DNA of 64,000 nt from Armatimonadota bacterium (GTDB lineage: Bacteria; Armatimonadota; UBA5829; DTLH01). The position numbers and the translations under genes were made by a program. Below the pieces are notes generated by a model. The model did no database searches. It had not been told where the DNA came from and worked only from the letters and a program-made list of their open reading frames with translations. Each line of letters begins with the position of its first letter. Position 1 is the stretch's first letter. The stretch is taken from contig JBDKUN010000059.1 in NCBI GenBank assembly GCA_039679675.1, forward strand, positions 127,608-191,607. The letters are read 5' to 3'. Below are positions 6,136 to 51,327 of this stretch, in pieces.

Positions 6136-6987
6136 CTATACCGGATCGATTATTGTCTTCTCGACACCCTCGGAATTGCCATATGCAACCGAGAACCCCA
6201 CTTTACTGGCTGCAGCGCCCCACTCGCCTGCTTTGTTAAGCGCCATCACGCAGGATATTTTGTCTCTCATCCGTGGATCGTCCGTAACAGCCCACAGCAT
6301 AGTGGAACGGCATGCCTCCATCGGGCTTGCGCCGTGGCGCATCTCCTCGACCACGCGGAAGCTCATAGCATAGCGCATAATATCCTCGCCCTGTCCCGTG
6401 GATGCCGCCGCACCTATTTCATTGTCACAGTACAGCCCGCCGCCGCAGAGAGGAGTATCCCCCACTCTACCCGGCAGCTTGTATCTTAGTCCGCTTGTAG
6501 ACGTACCCGTGCAGATATCGCCGTTGCTGTCGATGGCAATGACGCAGACCGTGTCATGAGACTCCTCCATGTATCCGGTCTCTTTCCATTGTATCCATTT
6601 TTTTCTGCTGGTTTCAGTAAGCATATTTCTGGGCTTGAAGCCGTTTTCTATAGCAAATTGTTTTGCGCCTTCTCCTGCCAGGAGACAGTGCGGTGTATTT
6701 TCCATCACCAATCTTGCGACAGAGATAGCTTCACCTATGTCTCTCAACGACGCTACGCCCCCTAATCGCCTGCCAGGTCCCCACATCATAGCTGCATCGA
6801 GTTCAACTATACCTTCCGAGTTTGGCGCTCCGCCGTAACCGACTGTTTCTACGCTTGTATCTTCCTCGATAATCCTTATGCCGTGCTCTACGGCATCCAT
6901 TCCATTTGCGCCTGCATGGAGATGTTTCATTGTCTCAGTGCATGCAGCTACTCCGAATCTCCATGTCGCTATTGCTACTGGTTTCAA
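6136..6987 (-). CDS. Ntn-hydrolase asparaginase family (isoaspartyl peptidase / L-asparaginase / glycosylasparaginase-like)
   Basis: HDTVCVIAIDSNGDICTGTSTSGL (autoprocessing Thr region) and the GGG...GAAASTGQGE glycine-rich loop are characteristic of plant-type asparaginase/aspartylglucosaminidase. Confidence 0.7.
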   Translation of the reverse strand: MKPVAIATWRFGVAACTETMKHLHAGANGMDAVEHGIRIIEEDTSVETVGYGGAPNSEGIVELDAAMMWGPGRRLGGVASLRDIGEAISVARLVMENTPHCLLAGEGAKQFAIENGFKPRNMLTETSRKKWIQWKETGYMEESHDTVCVIAIDSNGDICTGTSTSGLRYKLPGRVGDTPLCGGGLYCDNEIGAAASTGQGEDIMRYAMSFRVVEEMRHGASPMEACRSTMLWAVTDDPRMRDKISCVMALNKAGEWGAAASKVGFSVAYGNSEGVEKTIIDPV

Positions 6988-7534
6988 CTCATCTTCCTTT
7001 CAAAAACGACCTTCAATTACACATTCATATATGCAGACAGGCATATTCTCATATGCCTGTGCTTGCACATCTATTTTGCATCACGACGGGCACTCATGGC
7101 AAGTGTTCAGCGTTGATAAATGCAACGTCTTCCATGCTGCATCAGCTCATGTATTTTAATTTGCACTTAAATATTAACATATTGTCTGTTTTAAACTTGA
7201 CAGGCAGTTTGCAATGTGGCATATTACAGTTATAAGGAAGTATACGCTTCTGGTCTACGATTTTTTCGTCGCAACCACTAATTTATCTGTGTCATATCGC
7301 CATAATTATATAGATCATCCAGCTTACCTCGTGAAACAGCTGAGTGGCCTAATATTGATAACAACTCGATTTTATCTACCATCTATTCTTAAGGATGTAG
7401 TGGCCGGAAGGAATTGACTCTGGGGCTGACCGTAACCTAAAACCAGCTATAGCGGTTGGGAAGAGGCAGCCTCGGGGTGGATGGTATCAGATAAAAATAG
7501 AAAGAACAATATCCAAAGAGGAGGCGTAAGGAAA

Positions 7535-10500
7535 ATGCGTAGAAGCAGCTATGCAGCATCAGCGATTAAATCACCGCTGGTTGTATTAGCAATAGTGGCA
7601 CTGATCCTTTGTGCCGGTGTATCATATGCACAGCTTATTGGTACCCCGGTCTGGTCAGACTATCACTATTATGTCAACGTAGACGTAAATACCGGAAACT
7701 GTGCAAGAACAGCTACCCCGGTAGAGCTGAAGATTAACTTTACCAATTATTTAAATGGTACTACATTTGATCCGAACTCTGTAAGAGTTGCAGAGTTTGC
7801 AACCAAAAATGATAGAACCAGTTCACTGAATCCAGTAGAAATCTGGAGCCAGTTTGACCAGGAATCAGGATTCGATCCAGCTGCAAATGCGGTCGGCGAA
7901 GTAGTATGGATCCTTAGAGGGGATTACGGCCATACTAATACCACATTGGATGCATCAATAAACCCTTCAAATAAAACAAGATACTACAGGGTCTATTTCG
8001 ATAACACCAACAACACCAAAGATGCCACGACCTATCCCACAGACCTCAGTTATAATGTTGATCCGACAAACACTTCATTAGTCGATATTACAAACCATTT
8101 CTATACCGCAGGTATTTGGGCTGCGAAAGATTCCATATACAAGTTGTTGAATGCACAAAACGGTGCAAATCTGTGGACTAGCACCACAGATTCCTCAACT
8201 GGATGCGGTATGTATTGGTCAAATACCATGTTTAACGCCGCAAGCGGTGAAGCAGCCGCGCAGCAGTGGGCTAATGCAGTATCGCTTGCTACTAGTGCAT
8301 CCGCTAATAAAGCGATCAGGGTTACTTATAAATCCACCAAGACTGTCAATGTCAATAGCAGTCCATGCACTTTTGATACAGTCCGGAAGTTCTACTCCGG
8401 CGTTCCTTATTTCAAGGAAGATACAACCTTTACCGCTCCATCAAACTATAACCTGTGGCATAATCTGCAGCTTCGATGGAACGACAACGGCTCAAACAAA
8501 AGGACTCGAGTTATAGAAACAACAGAGCCCAGCCCCATCGATCCTTCCGTAAATATGCCTGCAGGAATGATCTATGACTATGCTACAGACATCACAAACG
8601 GCATCGGCGGCATAGGACAATTGTTTGCCGGTTACAGCATGCCGCAGACAATCGGAACTTATTCCAGTACAGATCTCCTGTATTCTGCATATTACAATTA
8701 CACATATGGCGGCTGCTGGAGAAATATAGGGCCGTATACACCGCTATATCTGAGCCATGCGACGATGGTCAACTCTGGAGCAGATGATGCATCTGCCAAA
8801 GCTGAAGTAGAAACAGCCCTTGTAGACTACAGCACTCCTGTCGAAGTAATGATAACAGGAAGCAGCACCAACTCCACAAGCTACGGCGCCATCAAAGGCA
8901 AAGTAACTGATGCCAGCAACGCAAACAGAACAGTTAACGGCGCTATGGTAAGACTGTGGGTGAATAACACCTACTTAGGTAAGACTTACACCTCAGCACG
9001 CGGTGAATATGCATTCTCCAATGTTCCTGCAGGAACAGCGAAGCTGAGCGTCAAGACTGATGGATACGAAACATTGGTAGTAAGCAACGTGGCAATCACA
9101 GCCGGAACAGTAACTACCGATAATATTTCTCTTCCGTCTATCATATTTGATACGACCAAGTCCACGAATCTCTGGGCTGCTTCAACAACCCATAAATGGC
9201 AACTTGTCCTTGATGCGGATGTAAAACAGATAAATGCAGATCCTTCAACCACGACTCAGGCTGAGATCAATGCATTTGCCGGTCCTACTACCGAAGCAGC
9301 TACTACTGACGTCTCTGTTCCAAACGCTGCAAGTGCAATGGGCTTCTTCCCTTATGGTTGGGATGATCTGCAGACAACAGATAAGGTATATGGCTGGTAC
9401 AGAACTACAGTCAATATTCCTTCAAGCTGGACAGCAGCGAAGACCCTTAGATTAAGAGACTTTGTGGTATCTGACTCATGTGAAGTCTACTTCAACGGCA
9501 ACTTAGTCGGAAAAGCAGGCGCTTTTGGCAGTGCTGATATAACCGGCACTCCTTTGAGCTTTGTTATTCCTGCCAGCTATGTCAATACCGGATCTGGTGC
9601 GACTAACGTGCTCGCAATCAAAGTATATGACAATACAAGCACCGGCGGAATCTATGCAGGCGGCCCTACCCTTGAGGTTGCTCCTGATGTGGCAAGTGTA
9701 ACAGTGAATGTCAAGGGGCCTCAGACTTTGGGCGGATCTGCACTTCCCATCCAGGGAGCGGCAGTAACGCTTGCAGGTATCGGTTCAGGTACTACTGACG
9801 TAGACGGCAATTGCACATTTGCATCAGTTCCGGGCGATACCTATACAGTGACAGTCAATCATCCCGATTACGGAACAACGACAGCTACCGCAGATGTCCC
9901 TGAGTCCGGGTCAACTACTGTTCCTGTCACTTACGATTCATTCCTCTGCACGGTAAAAGGTACGGTCACAAGGTATGGTACACCTCTTGCCTATGCCCGT
10001 GTAGTTGTTACCGACAGTGACGGCAATACCAATACTGCTGCTGCGGACGCAACCGGCGCTTATTCTATAAAAGGTAATAAGGTTGGAAGCAGCACGATCA
10101 CAGTCAACGCATTGAATGCTGTCCCAGTAACTAATCAGCCAATTCAGCTGCAGGCAATGACCGTAACGCTGGATAATATCGATCTGGCTTACGCCACACT
10201 TCCTGTATACGATGACTTCTCAGGAACTGATCTTGATACCAGCAAGTGGCAGCTCTACAACGTAGGCACACCTACTGATGGTAGTATTCCAGTAGATTCG
10301 ACATACTCACTTGCAGATGGTATATTGACGCTCACACCAGCACCTGGTCGCGGCGGTCTCTTGAGCAAGACTTCTATGATCCCTGCGAACGGCGTAGGTG
10401 CGTATGAAGTAGCATTCAATCAGAAAGCAACCGGAACAAACCAGGGCTTTGCCCTTTTGGATCCGACATTAGATGATCCTACCAATATCAAATATGTTTC

Positions 10501-12160
10501 ATACGGACATGGCGTCTGCCTTGAACAGCAGAACTGGTTCGTGAAGGCCTTCTTGAACAGCGCCACCAGCCCCAATGGCAACTGGGAAGTTGCAGTTGAC
10601 ACAACTAGTGGCGGCCTTGGATATCCTGCAAGGATCACGATTCTGAGGACTGCTAACTACTACGATGCATACTATAATGGTAAATGGGCATTGACATCTC
10701 AATTAGGTTCTAAGCCTTATGGAGATACCGGATTTGTCGGTAAAATGCCTGTAGACACAAATACTGGTAAGCCATATCTCTCAGATAACACATACATTTA
10801 TCTGAATGGTTACGTTAGCACCACTAATGGCTTAGGTTACACCAAGGGATATTTCGATGAGGTAAGAGCTGGTGATGCAGTTCCTATGCCCGCATCGACA
10901 ATATCAGATGTAAGAAATAGTGATGCCAGCAGTAATAAACTCTACATTAAGGGTGGAATAGTAACTGCCAGCTTTGATGATTGCTACTTCATTGAGAACT
11001 CTGACCGTTCTGCAGGTATCAAGGTTATCTCTACCTCCAAGCCTGCCGTAGGTAAGAGAGTAGAAGTAATAGGAAACGTAGTAAAGGATAATAGAGAAGT
11101 AGCTATCAATCAGCAAGATCTGACAGTTAGCACAGATGCAACAGTTCCTCCTACCGTAGCAATAACAGGCAAGGTAGCAGGAGAGCTGGACAAAGCCGGA
11201 GCAGCCGCACAGGGACTTTATGTAAAGGTTGCCGGCAGAGTCACTGGAGTTACCTATGACACCACTGACACAACTAAGGTCAATGGATACTTCCTTGATG
11301 ACGGCTCAGGCCTGGCAGGAGACAACACAAACAAGGGACTCTACGTAAAAGTAGATCCTGTCTGGGGAGTCTCAGGTGCCATCAATGGTACATTCAAGAC
11401 TGCAGAAGGGGTTCTGACTGTTACAACAGCGGGAGGAAACATTATTCCTTGCGTAAGAACTACAAAATCCGATGTAGCAGAGCCTGCAACATATACAGCC
11501 TATAATGACTGTGGATTTAGAATTGGTTTCTCCTCATCACCGGATGACACCAATGTGACACTCTACCACATAGGAACACCTAGTCCGACTGGTGCTCCAG
11601 CTTCACCAAAGTATGCTACAAGCGGATATCTTTTCGACTATGACACAGGCAATCAGCTTCCTATACTTGCAACGTTTACCTGCACCAGTGTTAGCGCTAC
11701 AACTTGGAATGATGGTAGCAATGCTTGCGGAGCTGATGCCGCTGCTGGCACGGATGCTTACAATGTCTTCTATGGCAAAGTTAACCTGCTTGGATTCGTT
11801 GCTGTAGCCTACCCGAATACAGTAACCATTACTTTCAGCGGGCTCAATCCTAATGGATTGTATGAGTTTGCAACCACAGGAAACAGAGGTGGTGCTGCTA
11901 CTGATGCCAACCGACCAACTAAGTACACGATCAGTGGTGCTCTAGCTTACACAAATACCGGTAGTATTACAGGGACAGGCGTTACATACGGTAACGACTG
12001 GATCACCTTCGACACAAGGAAGAATGTTACTCAAGGATACATCGCAAGATGGACAAATATCCAGCCTTCCGCTAATGGAACATTCTCCATAACCACGCAA
12101 TCAACTACTAATACTACTGTCTATCCGTTGAATGCATTCATGCTGAAGAAACTTCAGTAA
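7535..12160 (+). CDS. Giant secreted surface protein (about 1541 aa) with at least three CarboxypepD_reg-like beta-sandwich modules and a LamG/ConA-like module; Thr/Ser/Asn-rich
   Basis: The ORF track starts at 7481. The in-frame ATG at 7535 has a perfect AGGAGG RBS 8 nt upstream and opens a signal peptide MRRSSYAASAIKSPLVVLAIVALILCAGVSYAQ. Repeats such as GKVTDASNANRTVNGAMVRLWV...GEYAFSNVPAGTAKLSV, AAVTLAGIGSGTTDVDGNCTFASVPGDTYTVTV and RVVVTDSDGNTNTAAADATGAYSI are CarboxypepD_reg-like. The segment DDFSGTDLDTSKWQLYNVG... is LamG/GH16-like. No sortase or C-terminal sorting signal is seen. Confidence 0.65.
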   Translation: MRRSSYAASAIKSPLVVLAIVALILCAGVSYAQLIGTPVWSDYHYYVNVDVNTGNCARTATPVELKINFTNYLNGTTFDPNSVRVAEFATKNDRTSSLNPVEIWSQFDQESGFDPAANAVGEVVWILRGDYGHTNTTLDASINPSNKTRYYRVYFDNTNNTKDATTYPTDLSYNVDPTNTSLVDITNHFYTAGIWAAKDSIYKLLNAQNGANLWTSTTDSSTGCGMYWSNTMFNAASGEAAAQQWANAVSLATSASANKAIRVTYKSTKTVNVNSSPCTFDTVRKFYSGVPYFKEDTTFTAPSNYNLWHNLQLRWNDNGSNKRTRVIETTEPSPIDPSVNMPAGMIYDYATDITNGIGGIGQLFAGYSMPQTIGTYSSTDLLYSAYYNYTYGGCWRNIGPYTPLYLSHATMVNSGADDASAKAEVETALVDYSTPVEVMITGSSTNSTSYGAIKGKVTDASNANRTVNGAMVRLWVNNTYLGKTYTSARGEYAFSNVPAGTAKLSVKTDGYETLVVSNVAITAGTVTTDNISLPSIIFDTTKSTNLWAASTTHKWQLVLDADVKQINADPSTTTQAEINAFAGPTTEAATTDVSVPNAASAMGFFPYGWDDLQTTDKVYGWYRTTVNIPSSWTAAKTLRLRDFVVSDSCEVYFNGNLVGKAGAFGSADITGTPLSFVIPASYVNTGSGATNVLAIKVYDNTSTGGIYAGGPTLEVAPDVASVTVNVKGPQTLGGSALPIQGAAVTLAGIGSGTTDVDGNCTFASVPGDTYTVTVNHPDYGTTTATADVPESGSTTVPVTYDSFLCTVKGTVTRYGTPLAYARVVVTDSDGNTNTAAADATGAYSIKGNKVGSSTITVNALNAVPVTNQPIQLQAMTVTLDNIDLAYATLPVYDDFSGTDLDTSKWQLYNVGTPTDGSIPVDSTYSLADGILTLTPAPGRGGLLSKTSMIPANGVGAYEVAFNQKATGTNQGFALLDPTLDDPTNIKYVSYGHGVCLEQQNWFVKAFLNSATSPNGNWEVAVDTTSGGLGYPARITILRTANYYDAYYNGKWALTSQLGSKPYGDTGFVGKMPVDTNTGKPYLSDNTYIYLNGYVSTTNGLGYTKGYFDEVRAGDAVPMPASTISDVRNSDASSNKLYIKGGIVTASFDDCYFIENSDRSAGIKVISTSKPAVGKRVEVIGNVVKDNREVAINQQDLTVSTDATVPPTVAITGKVAGELDKAGAAAQGLYVKVAGRVTGVTYDTTDTTKVNGYFLDDGSGLAGDNTNKGLYVKVDPVWGVSGAINGTFKTAEGVLTVTTAGGNIIPCVRTTKSDVAEPATYTAYNDCGFRIGFSSSPDDTNVTLYHIGTPSPTGAPASPKYATSGYLFDYDTGNQLPILATFTCTSVSATTWNDGSNACGADAAAGTDAYNVFYGKVNLLGFVAVAYPNTVTITFSGLNPNGLYEFATTGNRGGAATDANRPTKYTISGALAYTNTGSITGTGVTYGNDWITFDTRKNVTQGYIARWTNIQPSANGTFSITTQSTTNTTVYPLNAFMLKKLQ

Positions 12161-12175
12161 TCGACTACTCAATAT

Positions 12176-12250
12176 GATGCTTTCTTAAGAAGCATCATCT
12201 GTTAGAGAAAAGGCCGTTCGGGATAAGTCCCGAGCGGCCTTTTCCGGTAT
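12176..12250 (+). terminator. Tandem hairpins downstream of the giant gene (likely intrinsic terminator)
   Basis: Perfect palindrome GATGCTTTCTTAAGAAGCATC at 12176-12196. A second hairpin aaaGGCCGTTCGGGataagtCCCGAGCGGCCtttt at 12209-12244 is followed by a short T tract. Confidence 0.45.
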
Positions 12251-12296
12251 GCTTGGGGTTTTTACTGGCTATTTGCCTGGTTAGGGGTTGAACCTT

Positions 12297-12821
12297 ATGC
12301 CGCGCAATGGTAGCATGGGTAAGATAAATACAAAGCTTTATGTGAGGCAAGATCAAATGGCAAAAGACAGGCGTCTGAACCTGGATCAGATAGACGACGA
12401 TAATAGCAGCCTAATCAATAAAGACCTGCTGAAGGACGTGATGGAAGCAACCGAGCACGCAAAACGCCAGAAAGCTGACGACAAGGCACGCGACCAGAAG
12501 CAACAGACCCAGGCCAAAGACCAGAAAACAATGATCGCCATAATTTCCGTGGCGACTATCATCATATTCGCTATAGCCTATTGGATGATCTTTATGAGAC
12601 AAGCGCCGCAGCAGGCCATCCAGGCGCCTCCACCATCCCACCAACAGGCAGCGCCAGTACAACAATCCGCGCCACCTCAAAACCAGCCGAATATGGGCAA
12701 CAGCCGGCCTATACCGAATGCGCCAAACAATAATGGCAAAGCGCCTATCGTATCCGACCCTGTCCGCCCTAACGCATCAGATACATATGGAGATCCTCAG
12801 GATACAGGCGGGGGACTGTAA
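12297..12821 (+). CDS. Hypothetical single-pass membrane protein with charged N-terminal region and Pro/Gln-rich C-terminal tail
   Basis: Lys/Asp/Gln-rich N-terminal 80 aa, one TM helix (MIAIISVATIIIFAIAYWMIF), then a PQ-rich low-complexity tail. The track starts at TTG 12288. ATG 12297 has an AGGGG RBS 8 nt upstream. No recognisable family. Confidence 0.35.
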   Translation: MPRNGSMGKINTKLYVRQDQMAKDRRLNLDQIDDDNSSLINKDLLKDVMEATEHAKRQKADDKARDQKQQTQAKDQKTMIAIISVATIIIFAIAYWMIFMRQAPQQAIQAPPPSHQQAAPVQQSAPPQNQPNMGNSRPIPNAPNNNGKAPIVSDPVRPNASDTYGDPQDTGGGL

Positions 12822-31894: not shown

Positions 31895-32820
31895 CTACTT
31901 GTCTCCATCGATTCCTTGACTGCTTCCGATGCCCGTTTCCATCTGTCGTGGAGCCACAGCCACTGAGACGGGTCTTTTCTGATCTCATCTTCTATTGCCG
32001 TGGTTATTGCCTGCGTCAGCATGTGAATATCTTCTTTTTCATTACCTGTATGAGTTACAGTAATAGGCGGGTATATTCTTGCCCTAAACCGGCCTTCTTC
32101 ATCCCTGCGCGCAAACCCACAGACAACTGGAGCGCCTGTTCTAAGTGCAAATACGGCAGGGCCTGTTGCAGTAGCACAGGGTTTGCCGAAAAAGTCTACA
32201 AATATACCGGTGAACGTGTTCTGGTCCGGCAGTATTCCCAAAACCTCATTTCTCTTAAGCGACCTGACAGCCGGAAGTGCTGAGTTGTCCCTGTCCAGCA
32301 CGTGATATCCGGCTGTCTCACGCATTTTGTTGGCAATGCCGGTCATCGCCGGGTCGTCGCTATTGCGGGCTATCACGTTCACTTTATAGCCGGATAGAAC
32401 CAGTTTTCGGGCAAATATCTCCCAGTTGCCCAGATGAGCCGTTATAAGAATAACGCCATGTCCCTTGGCAAGAGCTTCATCCATATATTCTTTTCCATCA
32501 AGATCAATCCAGGCATCAAGTTCCTCAGGCGGCAGGTGCAGAATATGCAAGAACTCCAGCATGCCTTTTGCAAAGTGCCTGCAGGTGTTTCTGGCAGTTG
32601 CGCGGACCTTCTCACTGCTCCATTCTGGATATGCCGCTGTGAGATTTTTTATAGCTACCCGCCTGTATCTTCGGGACATAAGAAACATAAAGTCTCCAAG
32701 TCTCCTGCCCCACCGGCCTATATTCGATTTGTTCAACCTGCTCGAAAAGCGAAGGAAAACCCATGCAGCTATCCTTCCGCCCAGAAATTCCAGTCTTTTT
32801 CTCAGCTTTCGGCGCGTCAT
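31891..32820 (-). CDS. lpxL: Lipid A biosynthesis late acyltransferase (LpxL/HtrB/MsbB family)
   Basis: Length, the N-terminal basic/TM region and the ITAHLGNWE (H-x4-E-type) acyltransferase motif. Confidence 0.7.
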   Translation of the reverse strand: MTRRKLRKRLEFLGGRIAAWVFLRFSSRLNKSNIGRWGRRLGDFMFLMSRRYRRVAIKNLTAAYPEWSSEKVRATARNTCRHFAKGMLEFLHILHLPPEELDAWIDLDGKEYMDEALAKGHGVILITAHLGNWEIFARKLVLSGYKVNVIARNSDDPAMTGIANKMRETAGYHVLDRDNSALPAVRSLKRNEVLGILPDQNTFTGIFVDFFGKPCATATGPAVFALRTGAPVVCGFARRDEEGRFRARIYPPITVTHTGNEKEDIHMLTQAITTAIEDEIRKDPSQWLWLHDRWKRASEAVKESMETSS

Positions 32821-35210
32821 AAACCAATCACCCTATCCAAAAGCCGATCCATGTTATCTATCATAAGTTCAATGTCCAACACATACATGTTCTCTAGACG
32901 CAGTTTTACGGCATCTTTTGCCGTTGTGACTATAGCTTGTGCACCACTTGACTCAAATGCCCGCTGAACAGCATTCACCCTCTCTTGAGAATACGAACAG
33001 TGGTCTCCAAAGCTTATTCTTTCCTTTATATCCGCGCCGCACTCTCTGAGTAGTATATCGAATGATTCAGGGCTTGCAATGCCGGATACCGCCACTATCG
33101 CCATTCCCTGAAGCCTAGATGTATCAAGTCGCTCGCCCGTTTCACAGTCGATCAAAGCGCTCGGAACTTTACCTGCGGTAAATATTTCCGCATCAGGCGC
33201 ACGATAAGCCAACTCAGCCTTAAGACCGGCTGCGCGGTCGGAATCAACCAGTTCTTTACCAGTGATCATGACCGCGTCGGCTCGTTTAATCCCGCTTACG
33301 GGTTCCCGAAGATCCCCAGCAGGCAATAACATGTTCATTCCATACGGTTTGTCCGCTCGCACAAGTATTATTTCGACATCTCGGTGAAGCTGCCAATACT
33401 GCATTCCGTCATCGAGCACTATCACATCCGGGCTGAACCTTTCCATCAGAATCAGCCCCATTTTGCGCCTGTCTTTTCCGATTGCTACAGGCACTCCGGG
33501 GAGCGCATTAGCAAGAAGCGCCGGTTCATCCCCGCATTCATGTGCATCCAGATACCGTGTAATGCCGTCCGACACTACAGCACCAACCTTACACAGACTT
33601 CCACCATGCCCCCGGCTGAGTATTGCGGGTTTCAGTCCACGGCGCAATAAACCTTCACATATTGACCGTACCGCAGGGGATTTCCCTGTTCCTCCGAACG
33701 TCAGGTTCCCAACGCTCACGACACGGCAGGGGAGTTTATATCGCAGCCTTAGTCCAGTTTTATAGGGCAATAAATACACCCACAGTCCAAGCCCATAGAG
33801 CCAGGAAAAGGGCAAAAGCAGGATACTGGGGGATAGCAAGTGTTCAGATACTCCGCGATCCTTCTGTTCTCTGTTCCCTGCTCCCTGTTTACTCGCCTCT
33901 ACTATCTTCTCCGCATATCTCCTTGACGCGCCCCTGTTTGCATTCATCATCTCAAGAGCATATTTTCGTATATCATCCAGTGCAGGACCGTGTGTTTGCA
34001 GATTTGTTATGTGTTTCGCAAGCTCTTCTTTATCCTTGACTTCAAAACCAACTCCAGCATCCACAGCCTGTCTGACCAGATCGCGCGCTTTAAAAGTGTA
34101 AGGACCGAAAAGGACAGGTTTTCCCTGCGCTATCGGCTGGAGGATATTGTGGCCACCTTTCGGGATCAGGCTTCCCCCGACGAACGCCGCGTAACCAACC
34201 GCATAGACAGTGGCAAGCTCACCGAAGGTATCAAGGATGATAATATCCTCTTTTCCTGATATGTTCTCAGACTGGCTTCTTCTGCCACAGGACAGACCGC
34301 GAGCACTCGCCATTTCGACTATTTCATCGGCGCGTTCTATCTGCCTTGGTGCCAATATCATTCTGAGATCGGGAACAGACTGCCGCGCTAGCTTAAATGC
34401 ATCCAAAACCGGCTCATCTTCGCCTGGATTAATGCTTCCTGCTACAAACACACTCTGGCCTTTTATTAATCCGAAGCGCTTTCTTATTTCATCGATCTCC
34501 GGTTTAGTAAGCGGGTCGGACTCCTGATCAAACTTACAGTTACCGATGACCTCTACACGCTTTTCTGAAGCTCCAAGCCCGATTATCCGCTCGGCATCGG
34601 TATCTGTCTGCATGAGCATCGTCTGAACGTTGGAAAGAGCCCACTTATAGAACGGCTTTATCTTTCTACCATTCTTTACGGTGCGGTCGGAGACAATCCC
34701 ATTTACTATCAGCGTTCGGACACCGATTCTTCTTGCAAATTCGAGGAAATTCGGCCAAATCTCGCTTTCCATGCTTACAAAGACATCAGGATCGACTACA
34801 TCCAGCGACTTTATCACGGAAAATGCAGTATCCAGCGGAAAATATATGATATGATCCGCCTCAGGAAGAGATTTCCGGGCCATTTCCTGGCCTGTAATGG
34901 TCGTGGTGGAAACTATAATTTCCGCATCAGGGCAAATAGCTTTTATCTCGCGGAGTATCGGTGCGCTTGCGACTACTTCGCCGACAGATACAGCTTGAAT
35001 CCAGATACGCGGCCGTGTTTTTGATCTTCTGTGGACACTTTCGGGGAAAATACCCAGCTGCTGCCGCCATGCATTGCGGGATTTCCCTGACCCCAAGACT
35101 CTCCAGATGTAATATACGGCTAGAACCGGACTGAGCAGAAGGAGCAGGAGATTATAAACAATCGGCATCCTGCTTTCCCTTTCCAAACAGTTCCTCAGCG
35201 GCTCTTTCAT
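32817..35210 (-). CDS. waaA-lpxK: Fusion protein: Kdo transferase (WaaA/KdtA, N-terminal about 440 aa) + tetraacyldisaccharide 4'-kinase (LpxK, C-terminal about 350 aa)
   Basis: The N-terminal half has IWIQAVSVGEVVASAPILREI...IIVSTTTITGQEMA and ...GGHNILQPIAQGKPVLFGP (KdtA). The C-terminal half has VVSVGNLTFGGTGKSPAVRSI...ILSRGHGG (LpxK P-loop) and ...FGDHCSYSQERV...IVTTAKDAVKL (LpxK C-terminus). It is one continuous 797-aa ORF. The likely start is the MPIVYNLLL Met near 35168. Confidence 0.8.
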   Translation of the reverse strand: MKEPLRNCLERESRMPIVYNLLLLLLSPVLAVYYIWRVLGSGKSRNAWRQQLGIFPESVHRRSKTRPRIWIQAVSVGEVVASAPILREIKAICPDAEIIVSTTTITGQEMARKSLPEADHIIYFPLDTAFSVIKSLDVVDPDVFVSMESEIWPNFLEFARRIGVRTLIVNGIVSDRTVKNGRKIKPFYKWALSNVQTMLMQTDTDAERIIGLGASEKRVEVIGNCKFDQESDPLTKPEIDEIRKRFGLIKGQSVFVAGSINPGEDEPVLDAFKLARQSVPDLRMILAPRQIERADEIVEMASARGLSCGRRSQSENISGKEDIIILDTFGELATVYAVGYAAFVGGSLIPKGGHNILQPIAQGKPVLFGPYTFKARDLVRQAVDAGVGFEVKDKEELAKHITNLQTHGPALDDIRKYALEMMNANRGASRRYAEKIVEASKQGAGNREQKDRGVSEHLLSPSILLLPFSWLYGLGLWVYLLPYKTGLRLRYKLPCRVVSVGNLTFGGTGKSPAVRSICEGLLRRGLKPAILSRGHGGSLCKVGAVVSDGITRYLDAHECGDEPALLANALPGVPVAIGKDRRKMGLILMERFSPDVIVLDDGMQYWQLHRDVEIILVRADKPYGMNMLLPAGDLREPVSGIKRADAVMITGKELVDSDRAAGLKAELAYRAPDAEIFTAGKVPSALIDCETGERLDTSRLQGMAIVAVSGIASPESFDILLRECGADIKERISFGDHCSYSQERVNAVQRAFESSGAQAIVTTAKDAVKLRLENMYVLDIELMIDNMDRLLDRVIGL

Positions 35211-46764: not shown

Positions 46765-49700
46765 TCAGAATCTCCGGTTGTACGACATTTCCAGCACACC
46801 CAGGCGGCGGGAGTCAGTTACGTATGAAAATTCCAGCCAGTCACGAATCCTGTAACTCAGAGTCAACGAATACGTCGCTCCGGTTATCGTCTGAGCGCCG
46901 GTCACAATCCTCCAGTATGAAAGATAGAAATTATCGAACAATTCCCTCGATAAAAATACGGCAAGTGGCTGCTCAAAACCGTATTCAATAGAAAAATCTT
47001 CAAGACCAAGAGCTTCTATGAACGTTGTTTCCAACGGGTCGAACAGGCGGGGAGATACCGCCACGCTGAACAACTCTCTAAGCTGGTCTCTTAACTCGGT
47101 CTCTCCCGTTCCGAAAATGTCTTCAAAGTGGCCCAGCGCTGCCAATATCTGCGTTCTGGTCAATCCTGCCGGATCACTCTTGAGTGAGATATTTTCAGGC
47201 TCAAGCTTGTCCAGTGGGCCTGAAACATCAAGGGTAATCTTATATCGCTGCTGTGTTCCCAGCCCTGAGGTCGCTGTAATGGTTGTCTGAGCATGCAGAT
47301 CAACAGTCACGCCTGCTGTCTGTCTGCCAGGAGTCCAATTGACATTGATATTTCCGCGTGTAATCCTCATTCTCGTTGTCGGGAATCGCAGAGTCCCGCT
47401 ATCAATACGTATTCCTGCTGTTATGAGCGGCTTCTCCAAAGAACCCGCGACCTGCCCGCTTCCGCGTAAAAGCGCGATAATACTTGGGTTTCTGAACCAG
47501 ACATTATCTCCTATGTTAAACCCGATATTAAACTTCGGATTTATAACATACCTGGCAATCCCTGTTGGGCTGACTGCTGGAACGCGGGATAGGATAACCG
47601 ATGCATCGCTTAATGCAACCTGTCCTGAAATCAGAGGCTCCGTAACGGATCCTGAAACAGCAAGCCCGTTTACCGTTGAGAATGTGCTTGTCACGCGCTC
47701 CTGATAACCCAGCAGGTTCTGCTCAACAAGTTTCAGATTGTTGAGGTTCAGAACCAGGTTTATAGCTCCTCGCTGACTGCCGGAAGCGGGCTTGAATAAA
47801 TTATGCAGCGATATTGTACCGCCTGGAACCGCATCGAATGTCCCGCCGCCGCTCGATCCGCCAGACAGTGTCTCCACTCGGACCAAATCCTGATCGAATA
47901 CAAGATTTGCCTGTATATTTGTAAACTCCGTCTGAAAATTCCTGACGTTGATGTTGCCGTCCTTAATAACCATCTGCCCGCCAAGATTTGGATTACTTAT
48001 TGAACCAGTGAGGTCCAGCGTCGCAGAAATAAGCCCAGGGTTCTTTGTGTCAGCAGTGACAGCATCCGATAACAGGGTAAGCACTTCTAGCGTCTGCTCT
48101 TCCAGTGCCGCGTGGAACGCAATCGGCTGGTCTGTAGGTATGGTGAATGTCTGCCAGTTCCAGGGAAGTGTTCCGAAGAATGCCGCGGATTGCGAGTCCC
48201 TCGTCACAAGTGCCCGGCTGATTTCAATAGTATTGCGCCCGATAGTTATCTGGCTGGCACGAAGCCTGTCAAATGAAATACCGGAGATTACCGGGTTTAC
48301 GACTTCAGCTGATGCCGTAACGAGCGGTGCATCAATAGGCCCTTTCACTGTTGCACGGACAGTAGCTGTGCCGCTGATGTGCGTCGGCCCGGCAGCGGGA
48401 GTAAGTGCATCCAAGTCCACGTTGTAAGCATCTATTTCAAGATCAGTCTGTCCGTTGGCGATCAAAGTACCTTGTGCTGATACGCTCAGAGCCTCAGCTG
48501 TAGCTTCGAACGACTCCAGTATGAGCTCGCCCCGGCGCGAAACCGCAGAAAGATCGATTCGAGCGTTTTTAATCTCCGAAATGTCAACATCCTGAGCTGT
48601 AAGGCTGAACTTGGCTTCCGGCTCATCTATCGGCCCTGATGCGGAAAATGATGCTGAAAGAATTCCTGTATCTGGACGCCTTAACTTCGCGAGAAGCGAT
48701 CTCAATCCCTCGCCTCCGGGCTGACCGATATATGGACTCTCCGACACAGCCGTGTAGATAACGGGATATGAGAAGTTTTTCAATACGCCGCCATCTATCT
48801 GCACTGTTCTTTTTTCAGTATCCAATGACGCGCGCTCTACAGAAAGGACACCGCTCGCCGACTGAAGGTTAACATCCGCGATAACAAGTGATTTTCCACT
48901 CCATTTGACCTCAGATGCGAACCTGTCGAATTTCACTGTGTTGATTACAGGATTATTTGAGACAACAGTTGCCTCCACCCTTGGATTACCTACCGTACCG
49001 GCTATACGGCCTTTTGCGTCCACTGTCCCAGAGAGAAGCGCATACGGTTTTGTGTACTGGCTCAATTGAACAAGGGCGATGTTGTTTGCAATAAAGTTGA
49101 AGGAGATATTGCCTTTAGCGTCTATCACTCCATCAGCGCTGAATACCGCGTTATCGCTTTGAGCCAGAAGACCGGTTAACCGAAGCTGCTTGTCGGAATA
49201 AGAAAATCCTGCGCGAGCCTGTGTGACCGGATACCCGGCGAATGAACCATCCGACAGTCTCAATGTCCCCGCTGCTGTTATGTTCGGAGCAGTGCCTCGT
49301 ATTACTACGCTCCCTGTAACACTGCCGGTAATATCTGCTTTAACCTGCAGTAGTGAGAGTATTCGCTCAGCCGGAGCTTCTGAGACATCGATATTGAAAT
49401 TAATGGTCGGTGAGGGTGTGCCTATTCCGCCTATTTTACCGTGGAGCGCTACTTCAGCAGGTAAAACACGGATAACCGCATCTTCCAGGGTAATACCGGA
49501 CGATGTTGCTACGAGTCGGCCTCTTGCATAATCAAACGCAAAACGCTGGAAGCGGCCGTTGAACACTTCCGCTCTTCCCGTTACTACCGGATTACTGAAA
49601 GGCCCTTTAACACTGCCGTTAAAATCAACTATTCCTTTATAACCCGTCAGACCGAAAGGTTTCTGCAAGATACTCAGGTCTACTCCCACGGCAGACACGC

Positions 49701-51327
49701 GTAGATCCATCTTCGCCGGAGTTATCTCTCCTGATGCCCTTATGACCCCGCTTGCAACGGAACCCGCCATGCTCTTTATACTTACATGGCTGTCCCTGAT
49801 CGTCAGCTGTGCTACGGCATCCCTATATGCAACATTGTCCAGGGTTCCACGTGAAACTTGAACATTAGCACCAAGTACCGGACTTGATGATAGCCCGATC
49901 ACAGTAAAATGCCCCGTTGCGGTACCTCTCAGCCCGGATTTTCGCAATTGAGGTATCCGGCTGAGCTCCACACCGGCACCTGTACCGGAAAGCGCCAATC
50001 TTGCGGCTCCATTAATGATCGTAACAGAGCCGGACGCTGTTATTCTTCCATTCAGCGCCCGCGCGGACGCGCTTTGCACAAGTATTGATCTCTCTGCATA
50101 AGTGGCTCTAATGTTAATACCTGCCGCATGGTAGCCGTTGAATCCTACCGATGGGATTTTGCCTCTTACAGCTATGACGATATGTTTGCTGGGCCCGATA
50201 ATATCGAGAGAAAGCGGGCCATGGCCTGAAATCATGATTCTGTTCAGATTGGCTGGGGATTTAAAATCTTCGATAACCCTGGAATAATCGAAGCTGCCGG
50301 ATGTAATGCGTAAATCGAACCGGGGATTCGCAAACCCTGCCATTGTGCCGTTCATGCGCATCTGAGAACCCGTAATAGAGCCTGCAAGATTGAAATCCAG
50401 TGTCTGATTTACCAGCCTTATCCTGCCTTTGATGCTAGTAGCAGGTTTTCTCAGACCTGAAACAACCGCCTGAGCGTTCCTGATATCCGCTGATCCCGCA
50501 TAACTCCAGATTCTTCTGCCCTTTACCAACCGTCCGGTCACGCTCAACCGTGCATCGCCGCGCCCGCTTCGGACTCTAACCGCTCCCTGCTTTATGAAAT
50601 AGTCCATCCAGTAGGAAGCCGCCGCATTTTCGGCTGTTATATCCGTTGCTACCACGCCTGCAGTGTTGTCAATGGAGCCAGATATTCTGACTATATTAAA
50701 GAGCTTCATACCCGGCCCTTTAGCAGAGAGGTTATATTCATAAAAAGGAGCATTTGACGCATCGAACGTCCCATTGATATTGACAGCTTTTGTAACTGCC
50801 GGTTTCGGGCCCGGTGTACGCGCCAGCCAGTCTCTGAACACGAGTGTGCCGTCCGTAATATCGACTACACCAATGAATGGAGGGCGGCGAGGGCCAGGCT
50901 TTCTTTTAAAGAGATCGCTGATATTGAGGCGTCCGTTTCTGAAGCGCTCCAGCAGAATAGTTGGGGAAATGAGTTTGATAGAATCCACGCTTTGTATGGC
51001 CGGGACTCGTCTGAACACAATGTCTCTCAGGCGGAAGTTGACGATAACCTGCTTGGTTTCGAGCAGCGTGCCTTTTTTGAATGATTCACCATTAGCGATT
51101 CGCAGGCCGTGTATGGTAGCAGTGCCTTTTAATGGAGATACGTCCACTTTGCCAACTTCGACTGCGCGGTTTGTCTGCTGCTCTATCTGTTCGACGAGTA
51201 TTACATCTATATGCCGGATCGTATACCTGACCTGGTTTATTATGTAGAACACAGCGGCGGCGAGAAACACCGTGAGCGGGATCACGATAAGCAAAAAGAT
51301 TGTCAGGCGCCGCCGTCTTGAATTCAT
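46765..51327 (-). CDS. tamB: TamB/AsmA-family translocation and assembly module protein (DUF490 C-terminus)
   Basis: 1520 aa, N-terminal signal-anchor (RLTIFLLIVIPLTVFLAAAVFYI), and a long beta-rich periplasmic body. Located immediately upstream of bamA in the same orientation. Confidence 0.7.
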   Translation of the reverse strand: MNSRRRRLTIFLLIVIPLTVFLAAAVFYIINQVRYTIRHIDVILVEQIEQQTNRAVEVGKVDVSPLKGTATIHGLRIANGESFKKGTLLETKQVIVNFRLRDIVFRRVPAIQSVDSIKLISPTILLERFRNGRLNISDLFKRKPGPRRPPFIGVVDITDGTLVFRDWLARTPGPKPAVTKAVNINGTFDASNAPFYEYNLSAKGPGMKLFNIVRISGSIDNTAGVVATDITAENAAASYWMDYFIKQGAVRVRSGRGDARLSVTGRLVKGRRIWSYAGSADIRNAQAVVSGLRKPATSIKGRIRLVNQTLDFNLAGSITGSQMRMNGTMAGFANPRFDLRITSGSFDYSRVIEDFKSPANLNRIMISGHGPLSLDIIGPSKHIVIAVRGKIPSVGFNGYHAAGINIRATYAERSILVQSASARALNGRITASGSVTIINGAARLALSGTGAGVELSRIPQLRKSGLRGTATGHFTVIGLSSSPVLGANVQVSRGTLDNVAYRDAVAQLTIRDSHVSIKSMAGSVASGVIRASGEITPAKMDLRVSAVGVDLSILQKPFGLTGYKGIVDFNGSVKGPFSNPVVTGRAEVFNGRFQRFAFDYARGRLVATSSGITLEDAVIRVLPAEVALHGKIGGIGTPSPTINFNIDVSEAPAERILSLLQVKADITGSVTGSVVIRGTAPNITAAGTLRLSDGSFAGYPVTQARAGFSYSDKQLRLTGLLAQSDNAVFSADGVIDAKGNISFNFIANNIALVQLSQYTKPYALLSGTVDAKGRIAGTVGNPRVEATVVSNNPVINTVKFDRFASEVKWSGKSLVIADVNLQSASGVLSVERASLDTEKRTVQIDGGVLKNFSYPVIYTAVSESPYIGQPGGEGLRSLLAKLRRPDTGILSASFSASGPIDEPEAKFSLTAQDVDISEIKNARIDLSAVSRRGELILESFEATAEALSVSAQGTLIANGQTDLEIDAYNVDLDALTPAAGPTHISGTATVRATVKGPIDAPLVTASAEVVNPVISGISFDRLRASQITIGRNTIEISRALVTRDSQSAAFFGTLPWNWQTFTIPTDQPIAFHAALEEQTLEVLTLLSDAVTADTKNPGLISATLDLTGSISNPNLGGQMVIKDGNINVRNFQTEFTNIQANLVFDQDLVRVETLSGGSSGGGTFDAVPGGTISLHNLFKPASGSQRGAINLVLNLNNLKLVEQNLLGYQERVTSTFSTVNGLAVSGSVTEPLISGQVALSDASVILSRVPAVSPTGIARYVINPKFNIGFNIGDNVWFRNPSIIALLRGSGQVAGSLEKPLITAGIRIDSGTLRFPTTRMRITRGNINVNWTPGRQTAGVTVDLHAQTTITATSGLGTQQRYKITLDVSGPLDKLEPENISLKSDPAGLTRTQILAALGHFEDIFGTGETELRDQLRELFSVAVSPRLFDPLETTFIEALGLEDFSIEYGFEQPLAVFLSRELFDNFYLSYWRIVTGAQTITGATYSLTLSYRIRDWLEFSYVTDSRRLGVLEMSYNRRF

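Follow-up and report, generated by a model that had tools for sequence, protein, structure and literature searches.

How does an uncultured bacterium control the mass production of a very large exported protein, and what might such a protein be doing at the cell envelope? This question is raised by a gene of an Armatimonadota bacterium that lies on a stretch of 64,000 nucleotides (contig JBDKUN010000059.1 of assembly GCA_039679675.1, positions 127,608 to 191,607), called the window in the following, to whose numbering all coordinates refer unless a locus is named. The gene occupies 7535-12160 on the plus strand and is preceded by a leader of about 300 nt. The 3' half of this leader, which had escaped an earlier note on the same DNA, appears to contain a conserved and covarying structured RNA that is common to a family of paralogs and absent from Rfam. 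The reading that is favoured here, with moderate confidence, is that the gene is strongly expressed and encodes an adhesin or a protein of an S-layer-like surface coat, and that its leader contains a novel cis-acting regulatory or stabilising RNA. Armatimonadota are widespread but barely cultivated, and in the literature searched there was no description of their S-layers or surface proteins, nor of cis-regulatory RNA motifs in this phylum.

A conserved two-hairpin RNA in the leader

Region 7385-7477 is predicted to form a two-hairpin RNA that shows compensatory changes and is present in front of eight homologous genes, which come from several assemblies of Armatimonadota. The eight full instances are those of the window, of four loci from one metagenome-assembled genome (MAG; L002-L005), and of L012, L013 and L138, while the homologs P0004, P0006, P0007, P0010 and P0013 are not placed on contigs and lie outside the leader comparison. 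The first hairpin, P1 (7385-7414), has a stem of 6 bp (7385-7390 with 7409-7414) and a loop of 18 nt that ends in the near-invariant GUAGUGGCCGGA. It is followed by a short A-rich linker and a second hairpin, P2-P3 (7418-7477), in which the P2 stem (7418-7428 with 7467-7477) continues beyond a bulged A (7429) into CC/GG pairs (7430-7431 with 7465-7466) and then opens into an invariant internal loop, with GUAA (7432-7435) opposite AAGA (7461-7464). The end is formed by P3 (7436-7460), a hairpin of variable length. Independent folds of seven loci by minimum free energy (MFE) all yield this one architecture of P1 and P2-P3. As a side observation, the P3 loops of L003 (7841-7950 of that locus) and L005 (342-451) contain a second copy of GAAGAGG, a duplicate of the internal loop's conserved 3' strand.

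The mean pairwise nucleotide identity of the core 7385-7477 is 0.77, as opposed to 0.44 in the spacer before the Shine-Dalgarno sequence and 0.57 in the upstream leader; it is 0.72 in the coding region of the signal peptide, and the proteins of the genes compared are only about 46-54 % identical in the family alignment. A covariance model of the element (R1) detects the eight loci at 59-111 bits, with the leaders of the long family at 98-111 bits, the short paralog of L012 at 67.5 bits, and L138, the protein of which is 38 % identical, at 59.2 bits. The model finds the element once in the window and, beyond the instances named, nowhere in the approximately 0.86 Mb of loci that were searched.

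That this region acts as RNA is suggested by the way its stems vary. In P1, 47 of the 48 stem cells are canonical pairs in the eight loci, versus 40.4 +/- 1.8 with permuted partners (p~0.002), and the stem occurs as AUUCCG/CGGAAU, AUUCUU/AGGAAU, AUUCUG/UAGAAU and, in L138, as ACUACA/UGUAGU. These pairs were counted by a script with anchor-based extraction, because MAFFT and covariance-model alignments gap the 5' strand of P1 in L012, L013 and L138. The inner helix of P2 (GGYUG/CRRCC) varies between C-G, U-A and U-G and also from G-C to A-U. The base of P3 changes from CCU/AGG to CUG/CAG in L138, which is a compensated change, and in L012 P3 has shrunk to CC-GAAUAAA-GG. On an unfitted MAFFT alignment, 80 % of the P2-P3 cells are paired, versus 24-52 % for slid partners; for covariation, the score of 0.279 (versus 0.203) is reached by 4 of 500 shuffles. 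Three further paralog loci (L134/L135 and L137) keep GUAGUGGCCGGA, and by eye one can draw other stems around it (AUGCC/GGCAU and UUAU/AUAA). As P1 stands alone in these loci, it looks like a separable unit.

Comparisons with known RNAs gave no family for the element. With Rfam 15, the plus strand of 6900-7700 yields no match at E<=10, and the L004 leader, searched at permissive thresholds, yields only meaningless fragments of long non-coding RNAs. A tRNA-like gene had been considered in view of the P1 loop, which resembles the D-loop of class-II tRNAs, and was rejected since ARAGORN finds none. A K-turn reading of the GUAA/AAGA loop was rejected as well, as by eye neither orientation sets tandem G.A pairs beside a 3-nt bulge. 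The same holds for a conserved anti-Shine-Dalgarno sequence, the candidate for which was a GCCUC in the 3' strand of P2 that is present in four loci and absent in L003, L005, L012 and L138. No conserved complement to the P1 loop exists in the leader or in the first 150 nt of the coding sequence. Finally, the pattern GTGGCYGNAN{15,45}GTAACN{5,35}GGAAGAGGC gave 120 loci in a metagenome-wide search, which are regarded as chance matches because none has the TGACYGTAAC core and because the 100 that were searched contain no credible match to the covariance model; the pattern was too loose.

The transcription unit

The signals around the gene indicate that the locus is a self-contained monocistronic unit, consisting of a promoter, the leader, a strong ribosome-binding site, the coding sequence and a double terminator hairpin. 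The mechanical open reading frame (ORF) extends from 7481 to 12160 on the plus strand, and the coding start is assigned to ATG 7535, because GAGGAGG is found 10 nt upstream and because all homologs begin with MRR at the matching position; the longer start at 7481 has no Shine-Dalgarno sequence, is not conserved and was therefore rejected. The product thus comprises 1541 amino acids, with the stop at 12160, as the earlier note had claimed. Upstream lies an Asparaginase_2 gene in divergent orientation (6136-6987, minus strand), and the gap between the two genes (6988-7534) is non-coding and AT-rich as described before (GC drops to 0.36-0.43), with a length of 547 bp instead of the approximately 490 bp given there. 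The neighbouring genes are housekeeping genes in divergent or convergent orientation, and there is no synteny between the homologous loci.

The promoter proposed in the earlier note, together with its leader of about 300 nt, is strengthened by conservation. It is of the sigma-70 type (7197-7225), with a -35 TTGACA at 7197-7202, a 17-nt spacer that ends with the TGG of an extended -10, and a -10 CATATT at 7220-7225. In a consensus scan it reaches 10 of 12 positions plus the TG, a score that alone is not above chance, but the same-register TTGAyw-17-TGG-yATAyA is found in six homologous loci (L002, L004, L005, L012, L134 and L138). For this comparison, the upstream regions of the window and four paralog loci were aligned, and L012, L134 and L138 were added by script or direct reading. 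Transcription probably starts near 7232, which would give a leader of approximately 303 nt (7232-7534), the upper end of the 192-303 nt estimated for the homologous loci. Its 5' half is weakly conserved, and its 3' half consists of the structured element, the A-rich spacer and the ribosome-binding site. A second promoter-like site (7355-7382, TTGATA-16-TACCAT), from which transcription would start at about 7389 at the foot of P1, is weak and not conserved in other loci and was rejected. A short missed ORF does not explain the leader: no leader ORF with a ribosome-binding site was found, and the two ORFs of 67 and 21 amino acids are not conserved and begin upstream of the presumed transcription start, in the poorly conserved part.

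The Shine-Dalgarno sequence GAGGAGG (7518-7524) is part of the block AAAGAGGAGGCGWAAGGAAAAUG, which is invariant across the five aligned loci and is also seen in L012, L013 and L138. After the stop codon follow two perfect tandem hairpins (12174-12244), one with a 10-bp stem (12174-12198) and one with a GC-rich 17-bp stem (12207-12244) and a subsequent UUUUCC. The pair has an MFE of -44.9 kcal/mol with a z of -5.8, and none of 200 shuffles folds as well. It is a probable terminator or 3' stabiliser; a simple terminator scan had missed the hairpin at 12207-12244 because only four U follow the stem.

A modular secreted protein

The product is predicted to be a Sec-exported modular protein that is built from beta-sandwich or OB-type modules, which are of the kinds that bind glycans. 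The mature protein has about 160 kDa, an isoelectric point (pI) of 4.8 and a low content of Met and Cys. Its richness in Thr and Asn, noted before, is a real enrichment against the other ORFs of the window (Thr 13.5 versus 6.0 %, Asn 7.5 versus 4.0 %), to which Tyr can be added (5.8 versus 2.8 %). The extensive N-x-S/T sequons, from which possible glycosylation had been suggested, are a different matter: there are 20 of them, whereas shuffled sequences have 22.5 +/- 4.1. The count is thus what chance predicts from the composition, and the hint at N-glycosylation falls. The clean signal peptide is borne out. It covers residues 1-33 (MRR...LILCAGVSYA|Q), is of the classical Sec type and is nearly invariant in the family, and it has no lipobox, since Leu is at position -1 to the Cys (LILC).

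The N1 beta-sandwich (residues 34-175) is followed by the N2 domain (176-445), which is a mutarotase-like supersandwich in the structure model. Then come a first CarboxypepD_reg domain (446-536), a galactose-binding-like domain (537-716), the second and third CarboxypepD_reg domains (717-886), a ConA/GH16-like jelly roll that was recognised in the structure model (887-1115), an OB-like domain (1116-1310) and the C-terminal beta-sandwich (1311-1541). The OB-like domain is mostly beta-strand in the model and has a weak OB-fold match to RPA14 (E 0.26), and the C-terminal sandwich, i.e. the last 230 residues ending with ...AFMLKKLQ, has no classified relative. Both the three or more beta-sandwich repeats and the ConA/LamG-like segment of the earlier note have thus been found again, the former as three stretches of Pfam CarboxypepD_reg (PF13620; 85.8 bits at a cut-off of 32.3) that make up about 17 % of the length. 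N1, N2, the OB-like and the C-terminal modules have no Pfam family, the NCBIfam scan of the protein gave no match, and GH2_N (PF02837) stays at 25.5 bits below its cut-off of 28 bits. With the profile of the family, matches were obtained to the sialate O-acetylesterase 7kmm, in its galactose-binding-like insert (E 3.9e-9), and to N-domains of GH2 (~1e-4).

As to enzymatic functions, no catalytic family was detected by Pfam, NCBIfam or PDB sequence searches, and no enzyme family covers most of the length. The lone enzyme-like fold is the GH16-type beta-jelly-roll of the ConA-like domain, which by Foldseek matches 4wzf. Pfam gives no GH16 match, and the catalytic motif ExDxxE or ExDx(x)E is not conserved in the family alignment, which is why this domain is not regarded as a GH16 enzyme; the candidate catalytic strand is GHGVCLEQQ, and its lone Glu is a Gln in P0004 and a Tyr in P0010. 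A known envelope anchor or secretion tag was not found either, in line with the earlier note: at E<=1 there is no Pfam or NCBIfam match to LPXTG, the C-terminal domain of type IX secretion, autotransporters, SLH, CWB2 or the lipopolysaccharide (LPS)-binding N-terminus of RsaA type.

A small family with conserved ends and a variable middle

In the searches made, the protein belongs to a small paralogous family that appears only in Armatimonadota. An identical protein is listed at NCBI from an Armatimonadota MAG under the name 'carboxypeptidase-like regulatory domain-containing protein', so that its CarboxypepD_reg domains are already part of public annotation. A word-indexed search gave nine further relatives with 38-49 % identity in best local alignments, and the named ones are all from Armatimonadota. 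When residues 34-445 were searched exhaustively with HMMER against 1.84 billion cluster representatives, the complete N-terminal region was found in only six 50 % clusters. N1, the first approximately 140 residues, is more widespread and matched 57 representatives, including archaeal MAGs (Aenigmarchaeota, Methanosarcinales, Altiarchaeota); no Pfam family covers it in the ten bacterial and archaeal relatives that were scanned. This module (~43-167, motif NAxGEVVWIL...YYRVYFD) also recurs in giant archaeal surface-type proteins, namely in L006 (2445-12512, an ORF of 3355 amino acids in an Altiarchaeota MAG), L007 and L008.

One MAG, GCA_039680575, contains four long paralogs (L002, L003, L004 and L005) on four contigs of 4.7-17 kb. 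Two of the four run off the contig end, and the assembly therefore seems to break at these genes. There is no second family member in the window; its other giant ORF (46765-51327) is TamB and not a relative. Among seven full-length members, the mean pairwise identity is 0.67 for the signal peptide, 0.64 for N1, 0.35 for the N2 supersandwich, 0.60 for the first CarboxypepD_reg domain, 0.47 for both the galactose-binding-like and the ConA-like domain, 0.67 for the OB-like domain and 0.55 for the C-terminal sandwich. The protein is conserved at its ends and varies in N2.

The C-terminal half, from residue ~805 on, also exists in the form of separate secreted proteins of about 735 amino acids (P0012-P0014), and at least one of these half-length paralogs, P0014, carries the full leader. 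The terminal sandwich alone is found in other architectures (P0015, P0016). The earlier note had pointed to glycosylation machinery as something that might adjoin the gene. In the window nothing of this kind adjoins it, and only P0014, in another assembly, has such neighbours: in L012 (1-12214, Logan SRR15035646) it is located between TamB/LplA/DUF72/GH38C and a block of Wzy_C (O-antigen-ligase/O-OTase-like), GT4 and a flippase, which differs from the window, where TamB/LplA are followed by HisRS/AspRS. This neighbourhood is a lead for glycan attachment to, or glycosylation of, the family.

Comparison with known systems

S-layer proteins generally have a low pI and few sulphur amino acids, and their genes are very highly expressed, show codon bias, have long 5' untranslated regions (UTRs) that form stabilising structures, and often come with multiple or silent paralogs (PMC3666127). 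The gene of the window resembles S-layer genes such as slpA of Lactobacillus acidophilus in that it is monocistronic, with a consensus promoter, a long structured 5' UTR, a strong Shine-Dalgarno sequence and a strong terminator, in that it encodes a secreted acidic protein that is poor in sulphur amino acids and has several divergent paralogs, and in that it is the most codon-biased gene of its neighbourhood. Several traits of the S-layer type are thus present (signal peptide, pI 4.8, low Met and Cys, four paralogs in one MAG), and so are sequence signals that relate to expression: the conserved consensus promoter, GAGGAGG, the long structured leader, the strong terminator, and an effective codon number (Nc) of 49.3, which is the lowest among the 42 ORFs of the window. 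Unlike S-layer proteins, the protein has no SLH, CWB2 or other known anchor, and its host is an LPS diderm. It is not assigned to the S-layer class, because a known anchor is missing and because a lattice and high abundance would have to be presumed.

The leader, too, differs from a generic stabilising S-layer leader, as its loops are invariant in sequence and common to paralogs and species. Leaders that are bound by proteins are known from other bacteria: the hag leader of Bacillus subtilis is bound by CsrA, with partner switching by FliW, and the slpA 5' UTR of Thermus thermophilus is bound by regulators. The Armatimonadota leader shares with them 5' UTR hairpins, and it has a GGA-containing loop (CCGGA) and a GGA-rich Shine-Dalgarno region; its conserved loops without intramolecular complement suggest a trans-acting partner. 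A CsrA consensus (ANGGA in a short hairpin loop that overlaps the Shine-Dalgarno sequence) is not demonstrated here and there is no linked regulator gene, so that this is an analogy only.

As to the protein, it can be added as a new member to a broad class, the modular secreted envelope proteins that consist of beta-sandwiches. It is similar to multi-domain envelope proteins with CarboxypepD_reg, having three PF13620 domains well above threshold, but these span only a minor part of its length. Its Foldseek match links it to the GH16/ConA jelly rolls including Rv0315, the catalytically dead mycobacterial 'pseudo beta-1,3-glucanase' (4wzf), to which the identity is 14-18 %; it differs from them in that there is no conserved ExDxxE strand and that its jelly roll is one module of a far larger protein, which is not an enzyme.

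A surface coat under the control of a leader RNA?

From these indirect signals we infer a surface location, abundance and an RNA-based mechanism, and an S-layer or adhesin identity is the plausible best guess. In the mechanism that is proposed, the conserved N1, OB-like and C-terminal modules would help to assemble the protein or attach it to a glycan of the surface, and N2, the variable supersandwich, would be the part that is exposed and diversifies. The long and half-length paralogs would all be expressed through the common cassette with its structured leader RNA. This RNA would act in cis and post-transcriptionally, by stabilising the mRNA and/or by docking a trans-acting factor that sets the rate of translation or decay for all paralogs together. 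A docking site is favoured, because the invariant loops have no conserved complement and because no conserved terminator or anti-Shine-Dalgarno helix is present.

Several points weigh against this reading. The host has an LPS-containing outer membrane, as can be concluded from the Lpx enzymes, MsbA, heptosyltransferases, Skp, BamA and TamB that are encoded in the window, and a surface location would demand a route across this membrane beyond those recognised. A known envelope-anchor domain is not present, and each module of the protein is also seen in carbohydrate-active enzymes, as an accessory module. The codon-bias signal is weak, because the G+C content at third codon positions is also unusual (0.41) and other causes are thus possible. 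The most divergent relative, P0018 (1216 amino acids), has neither the leader motif nor the C-terminal sandwich and belongs to an apparent operon (L136, 907-8029) of a helix-turn-helix regulator, a prepilin-type N_methyl/SBP_bac_10 protein, P0018 itself and an ABC sugar-binding protein. With regard to the RNA, there are only eight instances and the covariation statistics are modest (P2b p~0.04, P3 p~0.04), because four of the eight come from one MAG. The motif is located about 150 nt from the presumed 5' end, an unusual position for a 5'-terminal stabiliser, and between motif and Shine-Dalgarno sequence no expression platform, be it a terminator or a Shine-Dalgarno-sequestering helix, is conserved. 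Expression level, surface location and a lattice would, moreover, all be conclusions from the sequences of MAGs.

Among the rival readings of the protein, the strongest is a role in the capture or processing of polysaccharides in a carbohydrate-degrading bacterium, either as a secreted or envelope-bound glycan binder with multiple carbohydrate-binding modules (CBMs) or as a cryptic enzyme, with N2 or the GH16-like domain being catalytic. The strong expression cassette would then reflect nutritional importance and not a structural coat. It fits this view that all folds are typical of carbohydrate-active enzymes, that a CBM9 gene and a rhamnosidase-like gene are found nearby in the window, and that P0018 shares its operon with a pseudopilin-like gene and the sugar-binding protein. 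However, the sequence searches revealed no catalytic family, the GH16 catalytic strand is not conserved, and N2 shows the lowest conservation of all domains and contains no Glu that is invariant. There is also no sugar-utilisation operon around the gene, neither in the window nor in the other loci with visible neighbours, and for divergent paralogs with a common regulatory leader, surface variation is a better explanation than a single substrate specificity. Capture or processing of glycans is a serious possibility, though we consider it unlikely.

For the leader, a riboswitch has to be considered, i.e. an aptamer for a small molecule or a second messenger such as a cyclic dinucleotide that switches the translation of the family; cyclic dinucleotides control adhesins elsewhere. 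Conserved unpaired stretches that are framed by covarying stems are typical of RNAs that bind a ligand or a factor, and the element has such stretches, drawn as unpaired in the model (GUAGUGGCCGGA, the bulged A, GUAA/AAGA), together with a variable P3; all its full instances lie in a 5' UTR. The lack of any Rfam riboswitch match even at E<=10 does not support such an aptamer, and neither does the spacer, which is 35-50 nt long, A-rich, only 44 % identical and without a conserved terminator or anti-Shine-Dalgarno helix. The three paralog loci that keep only P1 would be odd for a single aptamer, and the very narrow distribution, with one protein family, is more typical of protein-binding or autoregulatory leaders, so that a riboswitch appears improbable. 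The conservation might also have nothing to do with RNA, if the 5' cassette had been recently duplicated or homogenised by gene conversion, or if it contained a DNA operator for a transcription factor. That half of the full instances come from one MAG, that the signal-peptide coding region is conserved as well, and that the P1 loop contains GGCC and CCGG palindromes would agree with this. But instances exist in at least four further assemblies or samples (window, L012, L013, L138), with proteins that are only about 35-54 % identical to that of the window, and the stems change by compensation while the loops are fixed, P3 varies in length and the spacer varies freely; an operator would furthermore lie about 170 nt downstream of the promoter. 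Since compensatory changes are seen in several independent assemblies, both gene conversion and a DNA operator are unlikely.

If the surface-coat reading is taken one step further, the leader would be a new regulatory RNA class, with a site for a dedicated protein or an aptamer, that co-controls alternative surface-coat (S-layer) proteins, and the OB-like and C-terminal domains would be a new anchor for the outer membrane or LPS; in this combined form the proposal is doubtful. LPS or a glycan receptor is a natural candidate for what the protein attaches to. If the combined proposal were true, this would be the first surface-layer system and control circuit for Armatimonadota, and if the protein were a glycan-capture device instead, the same cassette would flag genes that are important for nutrition to a high degree. 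The scope is narrow, as it comprises a dozen or so proteins and eight instances of the RNA, from a few assemblies. Within it, there is a candidate family of major envelope proteins with a modular logic, and a compact structured RNA of about 95 nt whose invariant loops are a handle for finding a regulator and for scanning MAGs for co-regulated surface genes. In this way, the leader RNA offers a test of how an uncultured diderm controls the mass production of an exported protein.

Neighbouring features

In the divergent promoter region beside the asparaginase gene, 7037-7060 form a perfect 10-nt inverted repeat, ACAGGCATAT-TCTC-ATATGCCTGT. It could be an operator or a leader hairpin of the minus-strand gene, and it underlies weak Rfam noise matches to Bacteroides-1 and mir-4657. 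Downstream, and set apart from the gene by the terminator hairpins, an ORF at 12288-12821 (plus strand) encodes a low-complexity protein that is rich in Gln, Pro and Asn and contains one predicted membrane-spanning helix (IAIISVATIIIFAIAYWMIF); it has no family assignment.

The envelope genes of the window are part of a cluster for LPS and outer-membrane functions at 26170-51327 (minus strand), which comprises a GT2, two GT9 heptosyltransferases, a GT4, a LolA-like protein, LpxL, an MsbA-like ABC transporter, LpxB, LpxA, LpxC, LpxD, Skp, BamA and TamB. In the same region, at 32817-35210 (minus strand), an ORF of 797 amino acids joins the N-domain of a Kdo transferase (Glycos_transf_N, 47-229) with the tetraacyldisaccharide 4'-kinase LpxK (462-793), and by its predicted domains this KdtA-LpxK protein is a fusion of two consecutive steps of lipid A synthesis.

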